Positions 1 to 60,812 of a stretch of 64,000 nucleotides of DNA are shown here, one piece after another. The stretch is from the NCBI GenBank assembly GCA_947627195.1, contig CANQVC010000003.1, positions 9,871 to 73,870 on the forward strand, read 5' to 3'. Below the pieces are notes generated by a model. The model was not told where the DNA came from and searched no databases. It was given only the letters and a program-made list of their open reading frames with translations. The position numbers and the translations under genes were made by a program. The DNA comes from an uncultured Bacilli bacterium (lineage in GTDB: Bacteria; Bacillota_I; Bacilli_A; ML615J-28; CAG-698). The stretch's first letter is position 1; each line of letters begins with the position of its first letter.

Positions 1-826
1 AAGTGAACTTTGTATCGATTGCTTTCATTTGCATGCAATCACTGACAATTAAACCTTTAAAATTGAATTTATGGCGTAAAATATCTGTTAGAATAGTTTT
101 TGATAAAGTAGTCGGGTAATCTTTATCTATTTTATCAAAAATTATATGAGCGCTCATAATAGCATCAACACCAGATTCAATAGCTTTTTTAAATGGCAAT
201 AATTCAATTTCTTCTAATCGTTTCATGTCATGAGAAACAGTTGGTAAACCTAAATGGCTGTCAACATTAGTGTCACCATGTCCTGGAAAATGTTTTGCAG
301 TTGCAATAACATTTTCACTTTGTAAACCACGAATATAAGAAATACCATATTCACTAACAACATTAGGATCATCAGAATAACTTCTAACACCAATAACAGG
401 ATTAGCTGGATTATTATTGACATCTAATGATGGTGCAAGATTCATATTAATTCCTAAATGAGTTAATTCTTCACCCATTCCTTTACCAACAATTTCAGCA
501 TTTTGTTTATTATCAGTGGCTGTTAAAGTCATATTTCCTGGCCAAAATGTTGCACCATCCATAATTCTTGTAACCATTCCACCTTCTTGATCAATGGAAA
601 TAAAAGGAATTGTTTTAGTATTTTTAATTACTTCTTGATGAATTTTTAAATTTAATTCAATTAATTGTTTTAAGGAAGAAATATTTCTAGTAAATAAAAT
701 AATATTTGCTACTTTATATTCTTCAATTAAAATACGTAAATGTTCATCATATTCATAACCATCAAATCCAGCAATAATTAATTGTCCCAATTTTTCTTTT
801 AGTGTCATTTCTTTTATTGTTCTCAT
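1..826 (-). CDS. nagZ: GH3 beta-N-acetylhexosaminidase (NagZ-type), 3' end runs off window
   Basis: Not in ORF track. Manual translation from ATG at 826 gives MRTIKEMTLKEKLGQLIIAGFDG; contains DQEGG and KHFPGHGDTNVDSH motifs. Confidence 0.9.
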   Translation of the reverse strand, partial: MRTIKEMTLKEKLGQLIIAGFDGYEYDEHLRILIEEYKVANIILFTRNISSLKQLIELNLKIHQEVIKNTKTIPFISIDQEGGMVTRIMDGATFWPGNMTLTATDNKQNAEIVGKGMGEELTHLGINMNLAPSLDVNNNPANPVIGVRSYSDDPNVVSEYGISYIRGLQSENVIATAKHFPGHGDTNVDSHLGLPTVSHDMKRLEEIELLPFKKAIESGVDAIMSAHIIFDKIDKDYPTTLSKTILTDILRHKFNFKGLIVSDCMQMKAIDTKFT

Positions 827-11593: not shown

Positions 11594-12463
11594 TTATGTT
11601 TTATCAAATAATTTTCTTTTAGCTTTTGATGAAGAAAATTTCATTTTTAAACTTTCACTATTATCTTCTTCAATATCTTTTTTTATCTTTTCTAATTCAA
11701 TAATGAATTGATTTATTTCACTGATTAAATAATCTTTATTTGATAAAAACAATTCACTCCATAATTCTTCATTTACTTTCGCAATTCTTGTTAAATCACG
11801 AAATGAATCTCCTGTATATTTAATATAATTTTCTGCTTCATGAGAATTCATTAAACTAACAGCTATAGCATGAGGAAGCTGGGATAAGAAACCAATAATT
11901 TCATCATGTTGTTCAGGGGTTAATATTTCAATATATTTGCATCCTAATAATAAAGCAAATTGTTTTAATAATTCAATTGCTTCTAAAGAATTTTTATTTG
12001 TTGGGGTAATAATGAAATTAGCTTTTTTAAATAAATCACCACTACTATTCATTATACCACTTGTTTCTTTTCCTGCCATAGGATGACTAGCAATAAATTC
12101 TAAATCATCTCTTAATATCATTTGTGCTTTTTCAATAATTTTTCTTTTAACACCAGTACAATCAGTAATAATAGTATGCGGTTTAATTTTATTTTGATTA
12201 TTTTCTAACCACGTCATTACATTATTAGGATATAAACCTAAAATGATAAAATCTGCTTCTTTAATACAATCATCAAAAGAAAGATTATGATTATCAATTA
12301 TATTATTTTTTATAGCATATTGCATTGTTTGTTGATTAATATCTATACCCATAGGTATTATATTATTTTCATTTAATACTTTGGCATAGCTACCACCAAT
12401 AAGACCTAAACCAACAATAAGAATTTTTTTCATTGAAAATATTTTAGTATTATTTATATTCAT
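11594..12463 (-). CDS. tyrA: Prephenate dehydrogenase
   Basis: GLGLIGGS Rossmann motif, HPMAG, SQLPH; start may be the later Met (MKKILIV). Confidence 0.9.
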   Translation of the reverse strand: MNINNTKIFSMKKILIVGLGLIGGSYAKVLNENNIIPMGIDINQQTMQYAIKNNIIDNHNLSFDDCIKEADFIILGLYPNNVMTWLENNQNKIKPHTIITDCTGVKRKIIEKAQMILRDDLEFIASHPMAGKETSGIMNSSGDLFKKANFIITPTNKNSLEAIELLKQFALLLGCKYIEILTPEQHDEIIGFLSQLPHAIAVSLMNSHEAENYIKYTGDSFRDLTRIAKVNEELWSELFLSNKDYLISEINQFIIELEKIKKDIEEDNSESLKMKFSSSKAKRKLFDKT

Positions 12464-13716
12464 ATTAGTTCAACTTTAACTCCTAATTTTCTTAAATCAG
12501 TAAAAAATGTTGGATATGATTTATTTATACATTCAACACCTGTTAATTTAACTGGATTAGCTGAAATTGTTGCCATAATTGCCATTGCCATACAAATGCG
12601 ATGATCATTATGACAATCAATTACTTCATTTGTTTTTATTTCATCTTTACCAGTTATAATAACTTTATCGGGATAAACGCAAAATGAAATATTAAATTTT
12701 TGTAATTCCTGTTGCATTGAAAGAATTCTATCAGATTCTTTTAAACGTAATCTTTCGATATTATAAAATGTTGTTTGACCATTTGCATGAGCACTTGCAA
12801 CCATTAAAATTGGTCCTAAATCTGGACAATCTTCTAAAGATATTTCAACATTCTTTAGTTTAGATGGATAAACTGTATGAGTAAGATCATCTATTCTACC
12901 ATTCATTTGCTTTAATATTTTTTCAATTGCTTTATCACCTTGTAAACTATTATTATTTAATCCTTGAATTGTTAATTCTTGATTAAATAAACCAAAAACA
13001 TAAAAGAAAGCAGCTTGTGAATAATCTCCTTCAACAATATAATTACAAGGTTTATATTGTTGCATACCTGGAATATAAAATAAATATTGAGATTTTCTTT
13101 CTATGTTTATGCCAAATTTATTTAATACATCTAATGTTAATTCTAAATATGAACCTGATTCAAGAGGAGGAATTATTTCAATTGAGGAAGATGTAGGAAG
13201 TAATGGAAGACTAAATAATAATCCAGTAATAAATTGACTCGAAACATTTCCTAATATCGAATAATGATTTCCTTTTAAACATGGTTTTACTTCTAAATAA
13301 TTTTCATAAATTTTTAAATTATCTTTAAATATATCTTGATATATACTAAGTGGTCTTGATAATAATTTAGGTGTTCCATATATCTTAGTATTTAAAGAAA
13401 ATAAAGAACAAATAGGAATCATGAAACGCAATGTAGATCCTGATTCATTGCAAGAAAAAGAAAGAGAATCTAATATTTTATTACTTCTACCAATAATTTC
13501 TAAATTATTATTTATAATATTAATATTTGCACCAAGATTTTTTACTGCATTAATGGTAGCTATAATATCATCACTTAAATTAACATTACTAATAATACTT
13601 TTACCATTTGCTAGGGAAGCACTAATAATACTGCGATGTGCTAAACTTTTTGATGTTGGCACTTTTATAAAATTAGTTTCATCTACTTTTTGATATGGAT
13701 AGATAATAGCATCCAT
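12460..13716 (-). CDS. aroA: EPSP synthase
   Basis: SKSLAHR, ESGSTLR, SSQF, KESDR, NDHRICM, KSYP. Confidence 0.95.
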   Translation of the reverse strand: MDAIIYPYQKVDETNFIKVPTSKSLAHRSIISASLANGKSIISNVNLSDDIIATINAVKNLGANINIINNNLEIIGRSNKILDSLSFSCNESGSTLRFMIPICSLFSLNTKIYGTPKLLSRPLSIYQDIFKDNLKIYENYLEVKPCLKGNHYSILGNVSSQFITGLLFSLPLLPTSSSIEIIPPLESGSYLELTLDVLNKFGINIERKSQYLFYIPGMQQYKPCNYIVEGDYSQAAFFYVFGLFNQELTIQGLNNNSLQGDKAIEKILKQMNGRIDDLTHTVYPSKLKNVEISLEDCPDLGPILMVASAHANGQTTFYNIERLRLKESDRILSMQQELQKFNISFCVYPDKVIITGKDEIKTNEVIDCHNDHRICMAMAIMATISANPVKLTGVECINKSYPTFFTDLRKLGVKVELI

Positions 13717-14732
13717 TACATATCACGTCCTATTATTTTCGCAATAGCTTTTCCTTTTCTAATCAATTCTGTAAAATGTTCAACAGTTAATGATTGTTGT
13801 CCATCACTTAAGGCTTTTTCTGGATGATTATGAACTTCAATAATTAAACCATCACATCCTGCAGCAATTGCCGCTAAAGACATCGATTCCACAAGTTCCC
13901 AATGTCCTGTGGCATGAGATGGATCAATAATAATTGGTAAATGACTTAATTTTTTAATTTGAGGAACAACTGATAAATCTAAGGTATTTCTTGTCGATCT
14001 TTCAAAAGTTCTAATTCCTCTTTCACATAATATGACATTAGGATTTCCTTCAGACATTATATATTCAGCACTCATTAACCATTCTTCTAAAGTATTAGCT
14101 AATCCTCTTTTTAATAAAATTGGTTTATTTGTTTTACCTAATGCACGCAATAAATCAAAGTTTTGCATATTTCTTGCCCCAACTTGAATTATATCAACAT
14201 TCTTAACGAATTCATCAATTTTATCAACTGACATAATTTCAGTAACTATTGGTAAATTAGTTTTTTCTCTTGCTTCGCATAAATATTTAATACCTTCACT
14301 TTTTAATCCTTGAAAAACATAAGGAGATGTTCTTGGTTTATATGCCCCACCTCTTAACATTTTAGCGCCAGCTTCTTTTACACCACTAGCTATTTCCATA
14401 ATTTGTTCTTCACTTTCCACAGAACAAGGTCCACCAATAACTACTACTGGTTCATTTCCACCAATTTTTATACCATTGACATCAATAATTGTATCTTCAG
14501 GATGAAATTGTCTACTTACTTTTTTATATGGAGTAGCAATATGAGTGACACTAATGACCCATGGATACATCCCTAGTCTACTTTCATCAACAATTGTTGT
14601 ATCACCAATTAAACCTAAAATATTAACAGTTTCTCCAACTATTTCTTGAACTTTTAAACCTTTACTTTCTATATCATGAATGACTGCCTCAACTTCTTCT
14701 CTTGGGGCTTTACTTTGGATTGTTATAACCAT
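13716..14732 (-). CDS. aroF: DAHP synthase class I-beta with N-terminal regulatory domain
   Basis: GPCSVE, KPRTSPY, GARNMQN, DPSH. Confidence 0.95.
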   Translation of the reverse strand: MVITIQSKAPREEVEAVIHDIESKGLKVQEIVGETVNILGLIGDTTIVDESRLGMYPWVISVTHIATPYKKVSRQFHPEDTIIDVNGIKIGGNEPVVVIGGPCSVESEEQIMEIASGVKEAGAKMLRGGAYKPRTSPYVFQGLKSEGIKYLCEAREKTNLPIVTEIMSVDKIDEFVKNVDIIQVGARNMQNFDLLRALGKTNKPILLKRGLANTLEEWLMSAEYIMSEGNPNVILCERGIRTFERSTRNTLDLSVVPQIKKLSHLPIIIDPSHATGHWELVESMSLAAIAAGCDGLIIEVHNHPEKALSDGQQSLTVEHFTELIRKGKAIAKIIGRDM

Positions 14733-15988
14733 TTTAATTCACCTAATATTCCTTTCACAGCATCAATTATATTATCATCATTTTTAATAACAATATCAGC
14801 ATATTGTTTATATAAATCTTTTCTTTCTTGATATCTCTTTTCTAAATCTTCTTTATTTTTAGTTAATGGTCTAGATTCTTCATCAACAATTATTTTATCA
14901 ATTGAACGGTCTATCCATATAATTATTCCATTACCTTTTAAATTATTGATATTATTTTGTCTTAAAATTACTCCTCCACCTGAAGAAATAATTTTTTGTT
15001 TTTCTAGTGATACTTCTTTTATCACATTTTCTTCTAAATCACGAAAATATTGTTCACCATATTTTTTAAATATTTCAGGAATTGTCATTTTAGCTTTTTC
15101 TTCAATGATTTTGTCACATTCTAATACATCCATATCGATACCATTAGAATGTAAAACTTTTTGTAGTTGTGATGCAATTGTTGACTTACCTGATCCAGGC
15201 ATACCAATTAATACAATATTTAATACTTCAGTTTTTAATTTTTGATAAATTCTAGTAATTTCATCATTATTAATTGGTGAATTATGAAAAAATATTTCAC
15301 TAGCAACTTTAGCTTGTGTTACTAACATTTCTAAACCAGAAACAGCTTTTATTTTCCTTTTTTCCGCCTCTAAAATGAGCTGTGTTCGAATTGGATTATA
15401 TACCACATCAATTATTGCTTCCACATTTTTATAACAATCTAGGTCAATAATTAGTTTACCTAAATTGGGATACATGCCAACAGGCGTTGTATTAACAAAT
15501 ATTTCAATTTCATTATGTAGAGCTAATTCTTCATATGTTAATAAATTTTCTTCATCTAAATCTTCAATTGTTGCTTTATAAACAATTTTAGCTTGTAAAT
15601 CTTCTAAAACACATTTAGCTGTTTTACTTGTTCCCCCAGTTCCTAAAATACAAACAGTTTTACCTTTTACTTCAATATTATGTTTCTTAATTAAATATAA
15701 AAAACCATCATAATCAGTATTATAACCATATAATTTACCATTATCATTAACAATGGTATTAACAGCTCCTATTTTTTTAGCACTTTCGCTTATTGTATCT
15801 AAATAAGGAATTACTTTTTGTTTATAGGGAATAGTTACATTAATTCCATCAAAGTCTTTTTTATCCATGAATTTATGAAAATCATCTTCATTTAATGGCC
15901 ATAATTCATAAGGTTCATTTCTTAATTCTTCATGAATAATTTTTGAATAAGAATGCCCAAGTTTACCACCTATTAATCCTAATTTCAT
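14723..15988 (-). CDS. aroE-aroK: Fused shikimate dehydrogenase-shikimate kinase
   Basis: N-term HSYS, NVTIPYK, AVNT, NTD; C-term GMPGSGKST, FRDLE, SGGG, RPL. Confidence 0.9.
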   Translation of the reverse strand: MKLGLIGGKLGHSYSKIIHEELRNEPYELWPLNEDDFHKFMDKKDFDGINVTIPYKQKVIPYLDTISESAKKIGAVNTIVNDNGKLYGYNTDYDGFLYLIKKHNIEVKGKTVCILGTGGTSKTAKCVLEDLQAKIVYKATIEDLDEENLLTYEELALHNEIEIFVNTTPVGMYPNLGKLIIDLDCYKNVEAIIDVVYNPIRTQLILEAEKRKIKAVSGLEMLVTQAKVASEIFFHNSPINNDEITRIYQKLKTEVLNIVLIGMPGSGKSTIASQLQKVLHSNGIDMDVLECDKIIEEKAKMTIPEIFKKYGEQYFRDLEENVIKEVSLEKQKIISSGGGVILRQNNINNLKGNGIIIWIDRSIDKIIVDEESRPLTKNKEDLEKRYQERKDLYKQYADIVIKNDDNIIDAVKGILGELKWL

Positions 15989-17080
15989 TTATTCCATCCA
16001 CATATAGCCATATCTTGATACATACAAATCTAATAAACCAATTGCTGTCATACTATCGACAACAACTCTTGCTCGATGAACAATGCATGGATCATGACGG
16101 CCTTTTCCTTTCATTATTATTTCTTTACTTGTCAATAAATCAACTGTTTGTTGTTCTTTACCGATTGATGGAGTAGGTTTAATAACAGTTTTAAAACGAA
16201 TTGGCATACCATTACTAATTCCTCCATTTATACCACCATTATTATTTGTTTTTGTTTCAATTTTATTATTAAAGATAAATGAATCATTAGCTTCACTACC
16301 ATATAAATTAGCAAATTCAAATCCTAAACCAAATTCAACACCTTTAACAGCAGGAATTGAAAATAATAGTGAAGAAAGTACAGATTCAATTGAGGAAAAG
16401 AATGGTTCACCAATTCCTCCTTCAATATTTAAAATAGCTGTTTCTAAAATGCCACCAACTGAATCTAAATTTTCTTTAGCTTTTTTTATTTCATCTAACA
16501 TTTTATTTTTAGAAGTAGATGATATAACAGCAAAATATGAATCATTTATTTTATCAATTTGTTTTTCTAATTCTTGAGGATTAACAGCAAAATCAACATC
16601 AATTGTATGATGAATTTGTTTGATATGAGTTGCTATTTTAATATGTTTATTTAATAAAATTTGTTTACAAATTGCTCCTGCAATAACAATTGGTGCCGTA
16701 ATTCTTCCCGAAAAATGGCCTCCACCACGATAATCTTGATAACCATCATATTTTAAAAAGGCAGTATAATCAGCATGTCCAGGACGAAGTATATTAGGTT
16801 GATAATCTGTTGATTTCGTATCTTCATTAGGAATTAAAATTGTTAATGGAGTACCTGTTGTATAACCATTAAAATAACCACTAATAATTTTAAAAGAATC
16901 TTTTTCTTGCCTTGATGTTGATATTGAACCTTGAGGTTTCCTTTTGTTTAATTCTTTTTCGATATTATCAATATCTAACATAATACCTTGTTTTAATCCA
17001 TCAATAACAACACCTATTGCCTCACCATGAGATTCACCAAATAAAGATATGTGAATGTTTTTACCAAATGATGATGCCAT
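15989..17080 (-). CDS. aroC: Chorismate synthase
   Basis: GESHG, RPGHAD, RGGGHFSGR, GRHDPC. Confidence 0.95.
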   Translation of the reverse strand: MASSFGKNIHISLFGESHGEAIGVVIDGLKQGIMLDIDNIEKELNKRKPQGSISTSRQEKDSFKIISGYFNGYTTGTPLTILIPNEDTKSTDYQPNILRPGHADYTAFLKYDGYQDYRGGGHFSGRITAPIVIAGAICKQILLNKHIKIATHIKQIHHTIDVDFAVNPQELEKQIDKINDSYFAVISSTSKNKMLDEIKKAKENLDSVGGILETAILNIEGGIGEPFFSSIESVLSSLLFSIPAVKGVEFGLGFEFANLYGSEANDSFIFNNKIETKTNNNGGINGGISNGMPIRFKTVIKPTPSIGKEQQTVDLLTSKEIIMKGKGRHDPCIVHRARVVVDSMTAIGLLDLYVSRYGYMWME

Positions 17081-17081
17081 A

Positions 17082-18089
17082 TTATTCCATCTCCTTTATT
17101 TTTTGATATAATTCATTAATAGAAATATTAACCATTTTGTATTTTTCAATTGCTTCTAATTGAATAATGGTAATTTCATTTTGCTGTCTTTTTTTATCAT
17201 TTAAAACAGCTTGATATATTTGATCTGTTTTATTTAGAATTGGTTTTTTTATATTCATTTTATTTAAGTAATTTAAGACTTGATTTTTAAGTTCTAAATC
17301 TTTTATCCATGGTATCATCCCAAAACCAACAGCTTCGCCATGGTAAATTTCTCCTAAATAAGCACTTTCAATTCCATGACCAATTGTATGGCCAAAATTT
17401 AATATTTTACGTAAGCCTGTTTCTTTTTCATCTTCTTCAACAATTTTTCTTTTAGCATCTAATGATCGATAAATAATTTCTTCTAAATTATTATCTATAT
17501 CATCAAATAAAGATAATAATGTTTTATCCATTATTAATCCCATTTTCATTGCTTCAACAAGTCCATTATAATATTGTCTTTTAGGTAAACTTTTTAATGT
17601 TTCAAAATCTATTAAAACACATAATGGTTGATAAAATGCCCCTACAACATTTTTCACATGTTCTAAATTGACAGCAACTTTTCCGCCAATTGAACTATCA
17701 ACCATAGAAAGTGTTGATGTAGGAATATTAATAAATTTACAGCCTCTTTTATATGATGAAGCTACAAATCCAGCTAAATCACCAACTACTCCCCCACCTA
17801 AAGCAATAATAGTATCAGTTCGAGAAAATTGTTTTTCTAATAATGATTTTAAGATTTTTTCATAAGTTTGTAATGTTTTACTAACTTCTCCTGGATGAAT
17901 AATATATTCATAACCATATTTTATCTTATCTAAAATTTTTTTACGATATGATGAAGGAATATTTTCATCACTTATTATCATAACTTTATTATTCAAAACA
18001 TTAGATGGAATATACTCATCTATTTTTTCTAATAAATTATGACCAAAATAAATATCATAACCTTGTTCTAAATTAACATGTAATTTCAT
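17082..18089 (-). CDS. aroB: 3-dehydroquinate synthase (start re-assigned to ATG 18089 behind AGGAGGT)
   Basis: GGGVVGD, DSSIGGK, LNFGHT, HGEAV; the ORF-track start at 18119 lies inside a terminator hairpin. Confidence 0.93.
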   Translation of the reverse strand: MKLHVNLEQGYDIYFGHNLLEKIDEYIPSNVLNNKVMIISDENIPSSYRKKILDKIKYGYEYIIHPGEVSKTLQTYEKILKSLLEKQFSRTDTIIALGGGVVGDLAGFVASSYKRGCKFINIPTSTLSMVDSSIGGKVAVNLEHVKNVVGAFYQPLCVLIDFETLKSLPKRQYYNGLVEAMKMGLIMDKTLLSLFDDIDNNLEEIIYRSLDAKRKIVEEDEKETGLRKILNFGHTIGHGIESAYLGEIYHGEAVGFGMIPWIKDLELKNQVLNYLNKMNIKKPILNKTDQIYQAVLNDKKRQQNEITIIQLEAIEKYKMVNISINELYQKIKEME

Positions 18090-18102
18090 AATACCTCCTA
18101 AC

Positions 18103-18133
18103 AAAAAATGTGTTACCATTTAGATAACACATT
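18103..18133 (-). terminator. Attenuator terminator just upstream of aroB RBS
   Basis: AATGTGTTATC-TAAAT-GGTAACACATT then TTTT. Confidence 0.8.
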
Positions 18134-18243
18134 AAATATTTATATTTATAAATCCGTGTTATCCCTGATATTGTTTATCGAATCAAGAATAACTTACAGA
18201 TATTTATCATGGCATTACTAAAATACCAAGATATGAGAGTAAA

Positions 18244-18318
18244 TTAAACTCGACTCTTTCTTGGATTAAAGTAATAGTAATAAAACATATTATTTATAAT
18301 ATTGTTTATAATGTTCAT
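18244..18318 (-). CDS. Phe/Tyr-rich leader peptide MNIINNIINNMFYYYYFNPRKSRV
   Basis: 24-codon ORF with six consecutive Phe/Tyr codons between promoter and terminator of the aro operon. Confidence 0.75.
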   Translation of the reverse strand: MNIINNIINNMFYYYYFNPRKSRV

Positions 18319-18371
18319 GTGCCACTTTTTAATGTCAATTAATGTATTGACATCTTCTCCATTCTACTAGT

Positions 18372-18400
18372 AGTATATCATATTATTCTTTTATTTGCAA
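18372..18400 (-). promoter_or_regulatory. aro operon promoter
   Basis: TTGCAA-17-TATACT with extended TG. Confidence 0.75.
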
Positions 18401-18438
18401 TAATAATTTGAAATATTACAATAATAATTACAATATTT

Positions 18439-19155
18439 TTATAATAATAATAGTGCTCCGAAGGCAAGCGTTGCTAATGCGGAAAGAGCATTATTGATAT
18501 AATGAAGAATAAATGGGATATATATTGAATCAGTTGCATATTCTAAGAATCCTAAAACAAGACCCATTACAATATATGGAAATACCATAATATAATCTTT
18601 ACCACTATAAACATGTAAAAAACCAAACACAAGAGCAACAATAAATACCACAACAAGACGAGGTATTTTAAAACTTCTTAAGACATCTGTAAGTGCTCTT
18701 CTAAAAACAAGTTCTTCAACAACAGGTCCAACAAAGGCAATAATAAAGAAGTAAGGTACACCATATGCACTTCTTAAAACTAAATCAAGACCTTCTTCAT
18801 TAATTGAATCACTTGGTAATTTCGCAATTTCAGAAATTAGATTAAAAATGACATTAAACATAATAGATATAGCAAATCCAATAGTCACTAAAATTAAACA
18901 TTTAATAGCATTTTGTTTGTTTAATGCGAGATAATCTTTTTTAATATCTTTATGTAATAAAACAACTGTAAAAATAAACATAAAAATATATATAATAAAA
19001 TTGACAAGAAAAGACGCTAACATTGGATTATCAGGATAAGCTTTTCTAAGTGCAGTAGCTAAATACTTTCCAAGCCATAAAAATACTAAAGCATATATAA
19101 CAACAACTATTATTTTAACTACTTCAAATCTTTTCACAAATTCTTTAAACTTCAT
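18439..19155 (-). CDS. CPBP (CAAX/Abi) intramembrane glutamic protease
   Basis: EELVFR, FGFLH, HYINN motifs; multi-TM. Confidence 0.9.
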   Translation of the reverse strand: MKFKEFVKRFEVVKIIVVVIYALVFLWLGKYLATALRKAYPDNPMLASFLVNFIIYIFMFIFTVVLLHKDIKKDYLALNKQNAIKCLILVTIGFAISIMFNVIFNLISEIAKLPSDSINEEGLDLVLRSAYGVPYFFIIAFVGPVVEELVFRRALTDVLRSFKIPRLVVVFIVALVFGFLHVYSGKDYIMVFPYIVMGLVLGFLEYATDSIYIPFILHYINNALSALATLAFGALLLL

Positions 19156-19872: not shown

Positions 19873-20034
19873 TCTTCTATTTCCTCCTTGTATAACAAGA
19901 TTTATAACATTTATTCTAGCAAGATATTATAATTTTGTCAATGATATTCAAATTTTTTTTAATTTTATTTCTTTTCTTACCATTTTATGATAAACTATTG
20001 TAAACAAAATATATTAAAAAAGGAATTAAACTAT

Positions 20035-21102
20035 ATGAAAGATTTAAAAGAAATTAGAAAAGAAATTAATCAAATTGATGAAGAGATGTTAAAACTATTT
20101 GAAAAGAGAATGGATGTTGTGAATGATGTCGCTTTATATAAAAAAGAAAATAATATTCCTATTTTAGATATATCTAGAGAAAAAAAAGTTATTGATGATA
20201 ATTGTAATAAAATTTATAACAAAGAATATCTTCCTTATTATGAAACATTTATTAAAGATATAATGGATATATCTAAAGAATATCAAAAAACAAAAATTGA
20301 AACTTTTCATATAGCATATCAAGGAAGTGAAGGAGCATTTTCTCATTTAGCAAGTCTAGCATGTTTTCCTAATGCTTCTTTCACATCTTTTCCAACATTT
20401 GAAGATGTTTTTATTGCAGTAAAAAATAATATAGTTGATTATGGAATTGTGCCATTTGAAAATTCATATACGGGTGAAGTTGGCGAAGTATTAGATTTAT
20501 TAGTAAAATATGATTTATATTTTAATAAAATATATGATTTAAAGATCCAACAAAATCTATTAGGTATTCCTGGAGCAACAATTAATGATATAACTGATGT
20601 TTATTCAAAAGATCAAGCAATTGCTCAATCTAGTAAATTTTTAAAAAATCGTAATTTCACAATTCATGAATTTTTAAATACAGCTTTAGCAGCTAAATAT
20701 GTTCATGAACAAAACGATAAATCTAAAGCAGCTATCGCATCTTTAGAAACTGCAAAATTATATCAATTAGAAGTAATTGCACAAGATATTAATACTGCTC
20801 AATCAAACACAACAAGATTTATAGTTTTATCGAAAAAACTTGATAAAACAGGTAATCGTATTAATCTTTCTTTTACTTTGTCTAATGAAGTTGGTTCATT
20901 AGCTAAGATTATTAATATTATTACTAATCATCATTTTAATATGGAAAAAATTCAATCAAGAGCTATTAAAGATTTGCCTTGGGAATATTATTTTCAAATT
21001 GAAATTGTTGGTGAATTAATTTCAAAATATACTGAAGAATTGTTAAATGAATTAAAAGAACATACTAAAGAACTTAAAATATTAGGTTGTTATACAAAAT
21101 AA
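20035..21102 (+). CDS. pheA: Chorismate mutase/prephenate dehydratase
   Basis: CM domain (LKEIRKEINQID), PFENS, NTTRF, ACT domain; start moved to ATG 20035 after AAGGAA. Confidence 0.93.
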   Translation: MKDLKEIRKEINQIDEEMLKLFEKRMDVVNDVALYKKENNIPILDISREKKVIDDNCNKIYNKEYLPYYETFIKDIMDISKEYQKTKIETFHIAYQGSEGAFSHLASLACFPNASFTSFPTFEDVFIAVKNNIVDYGIVPFENSYTGEVGEVLDLLVKYDLYFNKIYDLKIQQNLLGIPGATINDITDVYSKDQAIAQSSKFLKNRNFTIHEFLNTALAAKYVHEQNDKSKAAIASLETAKLYQLEVIAQDINTAQSNTTRFIVLSKKLDKTGNRINLSFTLSNEVGSLAKIINIITNHHFNMEKIQSRAIKDLPWEYYFQIEIVGELISKYTEELLNELKEHTKELKILGCYTK

Positions 21103-48336: not shown

Positions 48337-49662
48337 TTAATAAGGTTTTACATCCTTTGTCCAAGCTTTTAATAATAATTCTCTAGCTTTAACTAATGTT
48401 GGTTTATCATTTTTAACAAAGTCATGATATGTAAAGAAAACACATCCTTTAACATTTTCATATAAATCATTAACTTTCAATTGGTTAATTATTTCTTCAG
48501 GATTTCCCCAATTGCCATGATCAGTATAACGATAAATTCCTTGACCAATATATAATTTAACATTAGTCTTTTTTGCTGCCCAACTCCACCAATCAACTAA
48601 ATCAGCATATTTCACAATTTCAATTGTTTTGCCATCTTCTGCTACTTTAAAACTATCTAAGGAAAAATAATCTTGAGGAACAACATAATCTATCCAACCT
48701 TTTTCCATCCATAGATATATATCAGCATATAATCCTTCATAACATTGGAAACATGAATGATGATTATGTGAGCCATATTCCCATCCGCCTTCTTTACCAG
48801 CTTCAGCGAAATGACTAGAATGAGTACGATAAATACCAAATGGACTAATACCAAATTCTACTTTATGATCTAACGTATTTAACGCATCATGAATTTTCTT
48901 AATCATGGTATTAACATTTTCTCTTCTAAAATCATCTAAAGAAAGTTCAGGGTGTAATGCTTGATGTTTTTTTTCTTCAAGTGGATCACTAATTGGATCA
49001 TATGGATAAAAATAATCATCGATATGAATAGCTTTAATTGGATATTTTTTCGCAATTTCTAATACTGTATCAACAAGATAATCTTGAACTTTCGAACTAG
49101 CTGGATCTAATATTAATTTATGTTCAGATGTTTCAATAACACAATCAGGATATTTACGAGCAAAATTTTTAGGACTTAATTTTTCTTGTAAGAATTGTTC
49201 TTTTGTCATGTTAATTTCATTTAATTTTGTACCTCTAACACGATAAGGATTCATCCATGCATGTACATCAATTTCAGCTTCTTTTGCTTTATTAACAAAA
49301 TAACCAAATAAATCAAATCCAGGATCTTCATCTTCAGTTTTTGTCTTACTTAAATAACAACTCCATGGATTAATATCTGATTGGTAAAAGGCATCACATC
49401 CTGGACGTACTTGAAATACAACAGTATTTAAATGATATTTTTTACAAGTTTTAATGACATCATCCATTTGTTCTTTGTATTCTTCAATAGAATCACAAGG
49501 ATGTATATCAATATTTTCCACAGTAGAAAACCAAACACCTCTAGTTTCTTGCTTTTTTTCTTTCACATTTTCGTTAATCATGACAGGTTTATCAGTACCA
49601 TAATATGTAATAAATCCTTCACGTTCAACACATTCAATTTTCTTCATCATTATTCTCCTCAT
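48337..49662 (-). CDS. GHL10 (YddW/DigH-like) glycosyl hydrolase, cytoplasmic
   Basis: RGVW, FQVRP, HAWMNPYR, HIDDYFYP, FGISPFG, DYVVPQ. Confidence 0.85.
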   Translation of the reverse strand: MRRIMMKKIECVEREGFITYYGTDKPVMINENVKEKKQETRGVWFSTVENIDIHPCDSIEEYKEQMDDVIKTCKKYHLNTVVFQVRPGCDAFYQSDINPWSCYLSKTKTEDEDPGFDLFGYFVNKAKEAEIDVHAWMNPYRVRGTKLNEINMTKEQFLQEKLSPKNFARKYPDCVIETSEHKLILDPASSKVQDYLVDTVLEIAKKYPIKAIHIDDYFYPYDPISDPLEEKKHQALHPELSLDDFRRENVNTMIKKIHDALNTLDHKVEFGISPFGIYRTHSSHFAEAGKEGGWEYGSHNHHSCFQCYEGLYADIYLWMEKGWIDYVVPQDYFSLDSFKVAEDGKTIEIVKYADLVDWWSWAAKKTNVKLYIGQGIYRYTDHGNWGNPEEIINQLKVNDLYENVKGCVFFTYHDFVKNDKPTLVKARELLLKAWTKDVKPY

Positions 49663-60544: not shown

Positions 60545-60806
60545 AAAAAGTCCTCGATAGAAAAAAATCTATCAAGGACGAATAATATTATCCGCGGTGC
60601 CACCTTGGTTTCACGAAAATCGTGCACTTTTTAGGATACTTACATATCCCTAGCAACTTACGTATGCTTTCACGTTGCAGAATAATTTGATATAAATCAT
60701 TTCACTGCACCCTCCACGGTCCATTTGACAAACTGTATCTTACCTGACTCTCACCATCACAGGCTCTCTTTGAAGTCATATTTGCCTTTATCTCCGTATC
60801 AACGGT
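60545..60806 (-). ncRNA. Trp T-box riboswitch with terminator
   Basis: AGAGAG and GGTGAGA stem I boxes, specifier TGG at 60721-60723, T-box AACCAAGGTGGCACCGCGG 60592-60610, terminator 60550-60579 + T run. Confidence 0.92.
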
Positions 60807-60812
60807 TTAAAA

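Follow-up and report, generated by a model that had tools for sequence, protein, structure and literature searches.

A tyrosine- and phenylalanine-coded leader with alternative RNA helices upstream of a shikimate operon in an uncultured gut Bacilli: a probable ribosome-mediated attenuator

The aroB operon and its leader region

The window analysed here is a 64,000-nt stretch of DNA from the genome of an uncultured gut Bacilli (G000), and this study concerns a leader on its minus strand, in a 320-nt gap that separates a CAAX-protease-like gene (18439-19155) from the shikimate gene aroB. An earlier note, made from the letters alone, had described the gap as holding a Phe/Tyr leader-peptide attenuator of the shikimate operon. 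All coordinates of the leader and the operon are given on the minus strand, and the closest comparison is with a sister species of the same genus (G002).

Six aro/tyrA open reading frames (ORFs) that adjoin or overlap follow the gap (11594-18099, including the Shine-Dalgarno (SD) sequence AGGAGG at 18099-18094). They are aroB (likely start ATG 18089, end 17082; Pfam DHQ_synthase, 8e-46), aroC (17080-15989; Chorismate_synt, 1.5e-120), a predicted aroE-aroK fusion (15988-14723; Shikimate_dh_N plus SKI), a DAHP synthase gene (14732-13716; DAHP_synth_1, 1.7e-82), aroA (13716-12460; EPSP_synthase, 5.8e-79) and tyrA, encoding prephenate dehydrogenase (12463-11594; PDH_N/PDH_C). This layout suggests a single transcript for aroB-aroC-aroE/K-DAHP synthase-aroA-tyrA. 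The longest aroB ORF that can be called mechanically begins at ATG 18119, within the terminator hairpin described below; the true start is most likely ATG 18089, which lies 3' of AGGAGG and matches the start in G002. Automatic annotation of aroB could run 10 codons too long.

The upstream end of the leader carries a promoter-like sequence where the earlier note had placed one (18400-18372), with a -35 hexamer TTGCAA (18400-18395), a 17-nt spacer and an extended -10 element TG-n-TATACT (18377-18372). The hexamers match at 9 of 12 positions, with the TG in addition. Promoter-like matches in the region as a whole occur at chance level (12, compared with 9.3 +/- 3.8 in shuffles). Downstream lies an ORF of 24 codons plus TAA (ATG 18318 to TAA 18246-18244), whose peptide, MNIINNIINNMFYYYYFNPRKSRV, ends MFYYYYF NPRKSRV. 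The six codons TTT TAT TAC TAT TAC TTT (FYYYYF, 18285-18268) are the proposed stall site under shortage of Tyr-tRNA or Phe-tRNA; they precede an operon whose last gene is tyrA and whose products supply Phe/Tyr synthesis. An intrinsic terminator (18133-18101) stands just before the aroB SD and consists of AAUGUGUUAUC (segment 4), a loop, GGUAACACAUU (segment 5) and then UUUUUUGUU. Its hairpin (18133-18107) has 11 pairs and is followed by the U-run; no second terminator-like site occurs in 17900-18700, where shuffled sequences gave a mean of 0.1.

A search of the leader against Rfam 15 gave nothing at the gathering threshold and, at E<=10, just three chance-level matches to unrelated families. 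A T-box, a TRAP-like protein binding site and a riboswitch were rejected as explanations of the leader, as the Rfam searches gave no signature of them. The sole Rfam match in the window is the T-box that had been pointed out before (60571-60811, minus strand; 94.4 bits, gathering score 93). The G000 genome has 11 T-box matches, eight of them above the cut-off, so the organism uses T-boxes beside the leader peptide. A search of sequencing runs for the stretch listed no RNA run that contains it. DNA contigs from four sequencing runs differ from the window stretch in zero letters and are hence uninformative on variation.

Alternative helices in the leader RNA

The whole leader folds to -64.7 kcal/mol, compared with -41.0 +/- 4.0 kcal/mol for shuffled sequences (z = -5.9; 0 of 200 shuffles were as good). 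A hairpin that we call A, a helix B and the terminator make up its minimum-energy fold. Constraining some of the leader ORF to remain single-stranded gave an alternative fold, in which helix 1:2 and an antiterminator take their place.

Hairpin A (18264-18226) is built from CCAAGA (18264-18259) paired with UCUUGG (18231-18226) and AGAGU (18257-18253) paired with ACUCU (18240-18236). Within it lie the stop codon of the leader and segment 1 (18256-18239; GAGUCGAG-UU-UAAUUUAC), a stretch made up of the final three sense codons, the stop and the next 5 nt. Segment 2 (18201-18180) has two possible partners. With segment 1 it forms helix 1:2 of the read-through state (18256-18249 with 18187-18180 and 18246-18239 with 18197-18190); an inner hairpin (18233-18205; UGGUAUU 18228-18222 with AAUGCCA 18216-18210 and UAUC 18233-18230 with GAUA 18208-18205) forms within this domain and is incompatible with the 3' arm of hairpin A. 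With segment 3 (18169-18152) it forms helix B, the anti-antiterminator (2:3), in which 18201-18182 pairs with 18169-18152 over 18 bp with a 2-nt bulge. Helix B includes the 12-bp stem seen previously (18193-18182 with 18169-18158, two G-U pairs among them) and extends it by 18201-18196 with 18157-18152. Segment 3 can instead pair with segment 4 as the antiterminator (3:4): the pairing of 18163-18156 with 18130-18123 that had been reported is present and reaches 10 bp (GGAUAACACG, 18164-18155, with 18131-18122).

The helices A, 1:2, 2:3 (B), 3:4 (antiterminator) and 4:5 (terminator) thus make up a mutually exclusive chain. Their energies in G000 and G002 respectively are -26.3 and -23.7 kcal/mol for the 1:2 domain, -16.2 and -16.0 for helix B, -10.2 and -12.7 for the antiterminator and -11.6 and -9.7 for the terminator. 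The 1:2 domain outcompetes helix B in energy, and in G000 the antiterminator is about as stable as the terminator. One part of the original scheme had to be replaced: the leader segment AATCCAAGAA, which had been suggested to sequester 18193-18182, pairs there more weakly than the end of the ORF including the stop codon (18256-18239) pairs with 18197-18180, and its CCAAGA pairs locally with UCUUGG (18231-18226). We propose that hairpin A keeps segment 1 from segment 2 when the ribosome is absent; it is also a possible pause hairpin.

Conservation in the sister species

We searched 60 relatives for AroB and examined the region upstream of aroB in the 30 loci returned, two of which had too little DNA. 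Among these 30 loci a leader precedes aroB only in G002 besides G000, the two AroB proteins being 71% identical. The FY run upstream of aroB is kept in frame in the sister species. In three members of the same genus (G001, G003 and G004) aroB directly follows the CAAX gene, and in most genomes of a second family of the order pheA precedes aroB. A metagenome scan with AroB returned only three distant loci (39-43% identity), none of them useful, and Rfam gave no match on the aroB loci of the relatives.

The leader ORF of G002 encodes MSVTMNMFYFYDYFNPRKGRV. It differs from that of G000 by an in-frame extra codon (a 3-nt indel) and a two-base Tyr-to-Phe change, and it keeps the aromatic run, with aromatic codons at six of seven run positions. 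An equivalent of the promoter, TTGATT-17-TGcTATACT, is found at the same place. Identity between the two leaders is patchy: 35 of 82 positions from the promoter to the ATG, 5/12 in the loop of helix B and 11/19 in the antiterminator loop, compared with 55/64 over 18243-18180, and the 19 bases of the inner hairpin at 18228-18210 are identical, loop included. This is the pattern expected for a conserved structure. In all, 13 of 110 paired positions are substituted (10 of the changes being transitions) and 29 of 79 unpaired positions (six transitions). Only 3 of 76 pairs are broken, all of them terminal, whereas 13.5 would be expected at random (P=5e-5) and 9.5 with the same mix of transitions and transversions (P=0.002). 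The changes at 18190 (A-to-G in G002), 18160, 18155 and 18255 preserve pairing with both alternative partners.

A family of related leaders

Searching relatives, the family and the order with the leader by blastn gave only G002 and a 48-nt match to the terminator in G005. The latter proved to be part of a complete homologous leader standing before a lipoprotein gene, with a promoter, an SD (GGAGA-7-ATG), an ORF encoding MKPFVSVNVKFYYYYYFPRGCHV, a CCAAGA...UCUUGG hairpin, helix B, the antiterminator and the terminator. With these two as its only returns, blastn greatly under-reports the members. An exact 20-mer of segment 2 was found at eight loci among all genome contigs; one was a short contig of an uncultured Bacilli metagenome-assembled genome (L061), and the other seven, from unrelated taxa (archaea, Flavobacteriales and others), were taken as chance.

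The motif TACTTT-N0-3-CCAAGA-N15-40-TCTTGG was then scanned over 106 genomes of the order, with the reversed motif as control. It occurred in 15 genomes, all from the family of the window's genome, and the control gave two matches. Fourteen of the 15 were leaders; the match in G074 lies within coding sequence and was taken as chance. A variant leader in G003 was missed by the motif. A covariance model (R1), built from eight members with G000 excluded, matched 33 of the 106 genomes (23/56 in the window's family and 10/49 in the second family) and, outside the order, 1 of 137 genomes sampled across the class (G130). Run against the fetched loci (107,767 bases), R1 matched the window at 18100-18271 over its full length (minus strand; 44.4 bits, E=8.7e-7) and G002 with E=3.8e-5; G001, G003 and G004 were also matched. 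The stricter whole-genome run missed the G000 copy. Taking the model, the motif and the hand-found members together, 38 of the 106 genomes carry the family; G062 is counted on its motif and leader ORF only, R1 giving no significant match there.

Leader ORFs were read in 36 members spanning at least three families, a set that does not include those of G011, G043, G045 and the second copy in G014. Every one of the 36 carries Tyr/Phe codons, in frame and just 5' of hairpin A. In 35 ORFs at least three such codons are consecutive, a typical peptide reading (F)YYYYY(F)PR; the weakest ORF, in G001, has other residues that split FF and YYF. A canonical SD of the AAGGAG type is found 7-9 nt upstream of most of the start codons (ATG). 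The window's element has the same plan as the family, with the aromatic run just 5' of the CCAAGA...(U)CUUGG hairpin and the stop codon within segment 1, and on this comparison is best described as a diverged member of a conserved RNA family.

Covariation of the two states

Covariation was assessed in a model-guided alignment of 34 sequences (A6). The termination state (A, B and terminator) has 29 pairs with 93.8% of cells paired, and 15 of these pairs have changed on both sides. For the read-through state (1:2, inner hairpin and antiterminator) the figures are 37 pairs, 90.0% paired and 26 pairs (120 cells) changed on both sides. For either state 0 of 500 shuffles reached the observed values, a count that is not a probability since the sequences are related. 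Sliding the partner by one to three columns reduced pairing to 30-61%.

Hairpin A (94.0% of cells paired), helix B (93.0%) and the antiterminator (89.4%) lie outside the model's fitted structure, so the support for their pairing is not built in; the support for helix 1:2, the inner hairpin and the terminator leans on the model structure. Compensatory changes were found in four pairs of helix B, five of the antiterminator, 8/10 of helix 1:2, 10/11 of the inner hairpin (91.0% of cells paired) and 10/13 of the terminator helix (94.3%). The CCAAGA/CUUGG arms of hairpin A are invariant columns of the alignment. Of 15 members tested separately, 13 have the stop codon within the stretch that pairs best with segment 2 (about -13 to +10..17). 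For G001 (p=0.49) and G003 (p=0.08) the 1:2 partner did no better than shuffles, and G022 could not be segmented.

A further pairing was observed with RNAalifold in one subgroup (I; A4 columns 1-7/133-139; L074, L075), where the end of the run, UACUUUC, pairs with GAAAGUA 5' of segment 3. This helix of 7 bp is kept in 6-8 of 8 sequences per pair and is not seen in G000. An unoccupied run paired with GAAAGUA could block the antiterminator and favour termination.

Ribosome position and proposed mechanism

To model the ribosome, only the RNA 3' of it (beyond the first base of the A site plus 13) was folded, up to the terminator loop. With codons 9-18 of G000 in the A site, all F/Y codons included, the RNA forms 1:2 and the antiterminator; with codon 19 or codons 21-25 (25 being the stop) helix B forms and the terminator arm is free, and codon 20 gives a mixed result. 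G002 divides in the same way, codons 6-18 giving 1:2 and the antiterminator and codons 19-22 helix B. Ribosome-constrained folding, which the earlier note had called for, hence yields the antiterminator with the A site on the run and the anti-antiterminator at the stop codon in both species. The geometry is simple: the stop codon lies within segment 1, so a terminating ribosome would cover that segment, whereas a ribosome on the run would reach only ~18271-18256, masking the CCAAGA arm of hairpin A and leaving segment 1 free.

These data are consistent with the following model, for which we infer translation of the leader, stalling, a kinetic order of folding and a response to starvation. Transcription would start at ~18365 and a ribosome would translate the 24-codon leader. 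With ample Tyr and Phe the ribosome would reach the stop codon (18246-18244) and cover segment 1 (18256-18239); segment 2 would then pair with segment 3 as helix B, the terminator (18133-18107) would form and transcription would stop before aroB. A ribosome stalled on FYYYYF (18285-18268) would cover the 5' arm of hairpin A and leave segment 1 free. Segment 1 would pair with segment 2, segment 3 with the 5' arm of the terminator as the antiterminator, and RNA polymerase would read through into aroB. In the absence of a ribosome, hairpin A, helix B and the terminator would give basal termination.

Several observations weigh against this model. The SD of the leader ORF in G000 (AAGTGG, 3 nt before the ATG) is weak, as had been recognized, and that of G002 is weak as well, unlike those of most family members. 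Since read-through requires a stalled ribosome, weak initiation would blunt the switch, and this is our main reason for doubt about the aroB copy. When the entire 5' leader is left free to fold, the equilibrium probability of the antiterminator is high only at codons 11-13 (0.74-0.84) and 19-20, and falls to 0.01-0.33 at codons 14-18. The low values arise because the SD/AUG region of the leader can pair with the terminator arm, a pairing that is absent from G002 and so not conserved. Folding with no ribosome predicts termination in G000 and read-through in G002. In G062 and G001 the minimum-energy fold retains the antiterminator with the ribosome at the stop codon; as these equilibrium folds fail to switch, the model needs kinetic, co-transcriptional folding. 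Runs of five or more F/Y/W codons occur in 65 of 25,817 ATG-started short ORFs of the genome, eight of them intergenic, so aromatic runs alone are not rare at its 27% GC. Finally, transcription in Bacillus subtilis is reported to be faster than translation, which would disfavour such a mechanism in Bacilli.

On balance we consider it likely that the element is a ribosome-mediated leader-peptide transcription attenuator that senses charged Tyr-tRNA and Phe-tRNA and controls aroB-aroC-aroE/K-DAHP synthase-aroA-tyrA. The leader-peptide attenuator seen in the earlier note is confirmed as an observation and its reading as an attenuator is supported; the mechanism is our deduction from sequence. If it is correct, the ribosomes of this Bacilli lineage would trail RNA polymerase at a distance short enough for classical attenuation, in contrast to reports on B. 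subtilis.

Importer context and apparent relocation of the element

The gene downstream of the leader encodes a PF04392 substrate-binding lipoprotein in 31/31 other members tested, and the element stands before aroB in G000 and G002 only. The best solved relative of the PF04392 protein is Clostridioides difficile CD0873 (6HNI; E=9.9e-60), which according to passages of PMC6816091 binds tyrosine, its relatives 3LKV and 3LFT binding Phe and Trp. The system controlled by the family is probably a tyrosine ABC importer, and a Tyr-rich leader before such a gene supports the codons as the sensor. Anatomy, folding and family all support a Phe/Tyr attenuator of the shikimate operon, with the corrections that the run is mainly Tyr and that the usual target of the family is this probable tyrosine importer.

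G000 has its own PF04392 gene (G000:C21:15362-16342), which keeps the Glu and Tyr specificity residues in the alignment with 6HNI, on a presumed numbering offset. Between G000 and G002 the leader of this gene (C21, ~15100-15362; L083 1240-1510) is 86% identical; it comprises a promoter (TTGACT-17-TAGTATAAT), repeats able to form an anti-antiterminator, antiterminator and terminator, and a U-run. We found in it no aromatic short ORF and no Rfam match, nor did R1 match the importer leader significantly in either genome. In appearance it corresponds to the 3' half of a family element that lacks the sensing half.

The importer arrangement is found in three genus-mates and ~30 further genomes, which makes the importer the more parsimonious ancestral target and aroB a later, derived one. 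The element was apparently recruited from importer control to the shikimate/tyrA operon in the common ancestor of G000 and G002. With a slight preference we favour the fuller account, in which the window's element is a relocated copy of a Tyr-sensing family that is without match in Rfam or the literature searched (at least 38 of the 106 genomes of the order, 1/137 elsewhere in the class) and was ancestrally an importer switch, the importer leader having lost its peptide ORF on the move. On this account a single sensor would have been swapped between uptake and synthesis in nature.

Two further arrangements were noted among the importer leaders. G014 carries two copies ~1.3 kb apart on the same strand (C3:15745-15907 and 17094-17251; L100 152-314 and 1501-1658; 54.7 and 68.3 bits), which may serve tandem importer genes with an attenuator each. 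In G130, from another family of the class (C64:15802-15963, locus L117), the leader ORF encodes MILQFIQEQLYSYYYYNQGDVLINDLAF and the leader precedes a BPD_transp_2 permease and an ABC ATPase gene, not the binding protein.

Alternative explanations

The aroB copy might be a decaying or constitutive remnant, left after the family element had been duplicated or moved to aroB and now a promoter with a leaky terminator that no longer senses amino acids. Its weak SD would fit, as would its occurrence at aroB in only 2 of the 38 family-bearing genomes, the R1 score of 44 bits compared with 128-176 for the training members, and the importer leader of the same two genomes, which has lost its aromatic ORF. 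However, at 71% aroB identity G000 and G002 retain the promoter, the in-frame run, the stop codon in segment 1 and the four alternative helices; substitutions at paired positions have a third of the frequency seen at unpaired ones and favour transitions that preserve pairs. We therefore regard a remnant as unlikely.

Another reading accepts the RNA switch and takes the ribosome out of it: a protein, an uncharged tRNA or a small ligand would stabilize 1:2 or the inner hairpin, the F/Y ORF being incidental or serving to tune the response. In its favour, the inner hairpin 18228-18210 is identical in G002 down to its loop, the C-terminal residues of the peptide are conserved mainly because they are segment 1, and the SDs of G000 and G002 are weak. 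Across the family, however, 10 of the 11 pairs of the inner hairpin show double changes, so that its sequence itself is not required, and no T-box, riboswitch or other Rfam match was obtained. The coding properties also speak against this reading: the in-frame Tyr/Phe codons 5' of hairpin A are kept in all 36 ORFs across at least three families (in 35 as a run of three or more) while the N-terminal parts vary freely, most SDs are canonical, and the stop codon lies within segment 1 in 13/15 members. A switch of this kind is quite unlikely.

A chance juxtaposition of a short aromatic-run ORF and a terminator in AT-rich intergenic DNA draws on the frequency of such runs (eight of the 65 intergenic) and of promoter-like matches, but is hardly credible in the face of the fold z-score, the significant match by a model built without the G000 sequence, the family-wide covariation of two alternative structures and the conservation in G002.

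Comparison with known attenuators

The mechanism favoured here, ribosome-mediated attenuation by a leader peptide, is classical (trpL, pheL, hisL); two points add to the earlier note, namely a family without match in Rfam or the literature searched and the apparent transfer of the sensor from uptake to synthesis. Functionally, its nearest analogue is the aroR leader of Corynebacterium glutamicum (Phe-Tyr-Phe), which precedes the DAHP synthase gene aroF. As described in parts of PMC11802643 and PMC4046766, its read-through is raised by stalling under Phe limitation, and it responds to Phe, not Tyr. Like the window's element it is a short Phe/Tyr leader ORF before a shikimate gene, but the likeness is functional only: aroR belongs to an actinobacterium and has three regulatory codons, whereas our element has six, mainly Tyr, and more alternative helices in its chain, and its family acts mostly on an importer.

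In the Escherichia coli systems pheL-pheA, pheM-pheST and trpL, as outlined in sections of PMC11802643 and PMC3082878, a leader ORF carries the cognate codons and the position of the ribosome chooses between antiterminator and terminator. The window's element shares with them the promoter, the cognate-codon ORF and the mutually exclusive antiterminator and terminator. Its run is Tyr-rich and not pure Phe, and the Rfam Phe_leader gave no match at E<=10. The use of the ribosome also differs. In trpL the stalled ribosome masks segment 1; here a stalled ribosome would leave segment 1 free and mask an arm of the hairpin that encloses it, and it would be the terminating ribosome that masks segment 1.

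The enterobacterial his leader has six segments, which pair as A:B, C:D and E:F or as B:C and D:E. It follows the same logic of a chain of alternate helices with more than four segments, to which hairpin A, helix B and the terminator on one side and 1:2 and the antiterminator on the other correspond in our element, for a different amino acid and with a different sequence in a different phylum. The likeness is one of design, not descent.

Within the Firmicutes, aromatic genes and TrpX-type (PF04392) importers are usually controlled by T-boxes. A T-box likewise chooses between terminator and antiterminator according to tRNA charging, but it reads the uncharged tRNA directly and needs no translation. 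The trpX importer gene (PF04392) of Streptococcus suis is one that is described as T-box controlled in the text consulted of PMC9382623. Classical leader peptides are also known there: His leaders are predicted in the Bacillus cereus group, Peptostreptococcaceae and Erysipelotrichales (portions of PMC9413887 and PMC2965389), the ilv-leu operon of Staphylococcus aureus has a Leu-rich attenuator peptide (a passage of PMC5794164), and Rfam includes a Leu/phe leader of Lactococcus (an excerpt of PMC2864571). The His and Leu leaders show that such peptides exist in Firmicutes beside T-boxes, and share the general anatomy of the window's element, for other amino acids and operons. The Rfam Leu/phe leader gave no match to the G000 leader, and the mostly non-subscription literature that we searched describes no Firmicutes leader with Tyr/Phe codons ahead of aro genes or of a PF04392 importer.

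Textbooks use leader-peptide attenuation to illustrate the coupling of transcription to translation, but in the T-box-dominated Firmicutes examples are few and for the most part only predicted. A family in 38 genomes with canonical leader ORFs and covarying conformations is a candidate for an Rfam entry and a test of coupling in non-model Bacilli. It gives the regulatory label 'tyrosine' to PF04392 importers of uncultured gut bacteria, and in the aroB copy nature would have put the same sensor to a second use, in a biosynthetic operon. The element also accounts for what would otherwise look like an 'empty' 320-nt region.

Other observations

A search of intergenic short ORFs in G000 for His, Trp, Thr, Leu, ILV and other runs found no other leader-peptide attenuator. 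The single candidate His leader was rejected as an off-frame reading of a small protein gene. The gene that accounts for this candidate, a small ORF at G000:C4 ~48867-49010 (locus L065 268-411), has a strong SD and encodes MFGYNNYGYAPSCGCGSNQG... followed by a hydrophobic tail; we take it to resemble small sporulation-type proteins.

Two genes upstream of the leader, on the plus strand, lies pheA (19873-21102), with chorismate mutase, prephenate dehydratase and ACT domains; the DNA upstream of it measures only ~114 nt. In the operon itself, 14723-15988 is one ORF of 421 residues with a shikimate dehydrogenase N-domain (residues 5-79) and a shikimate kinase domain (264-407), and appears to be an aroE-aroK fusion.

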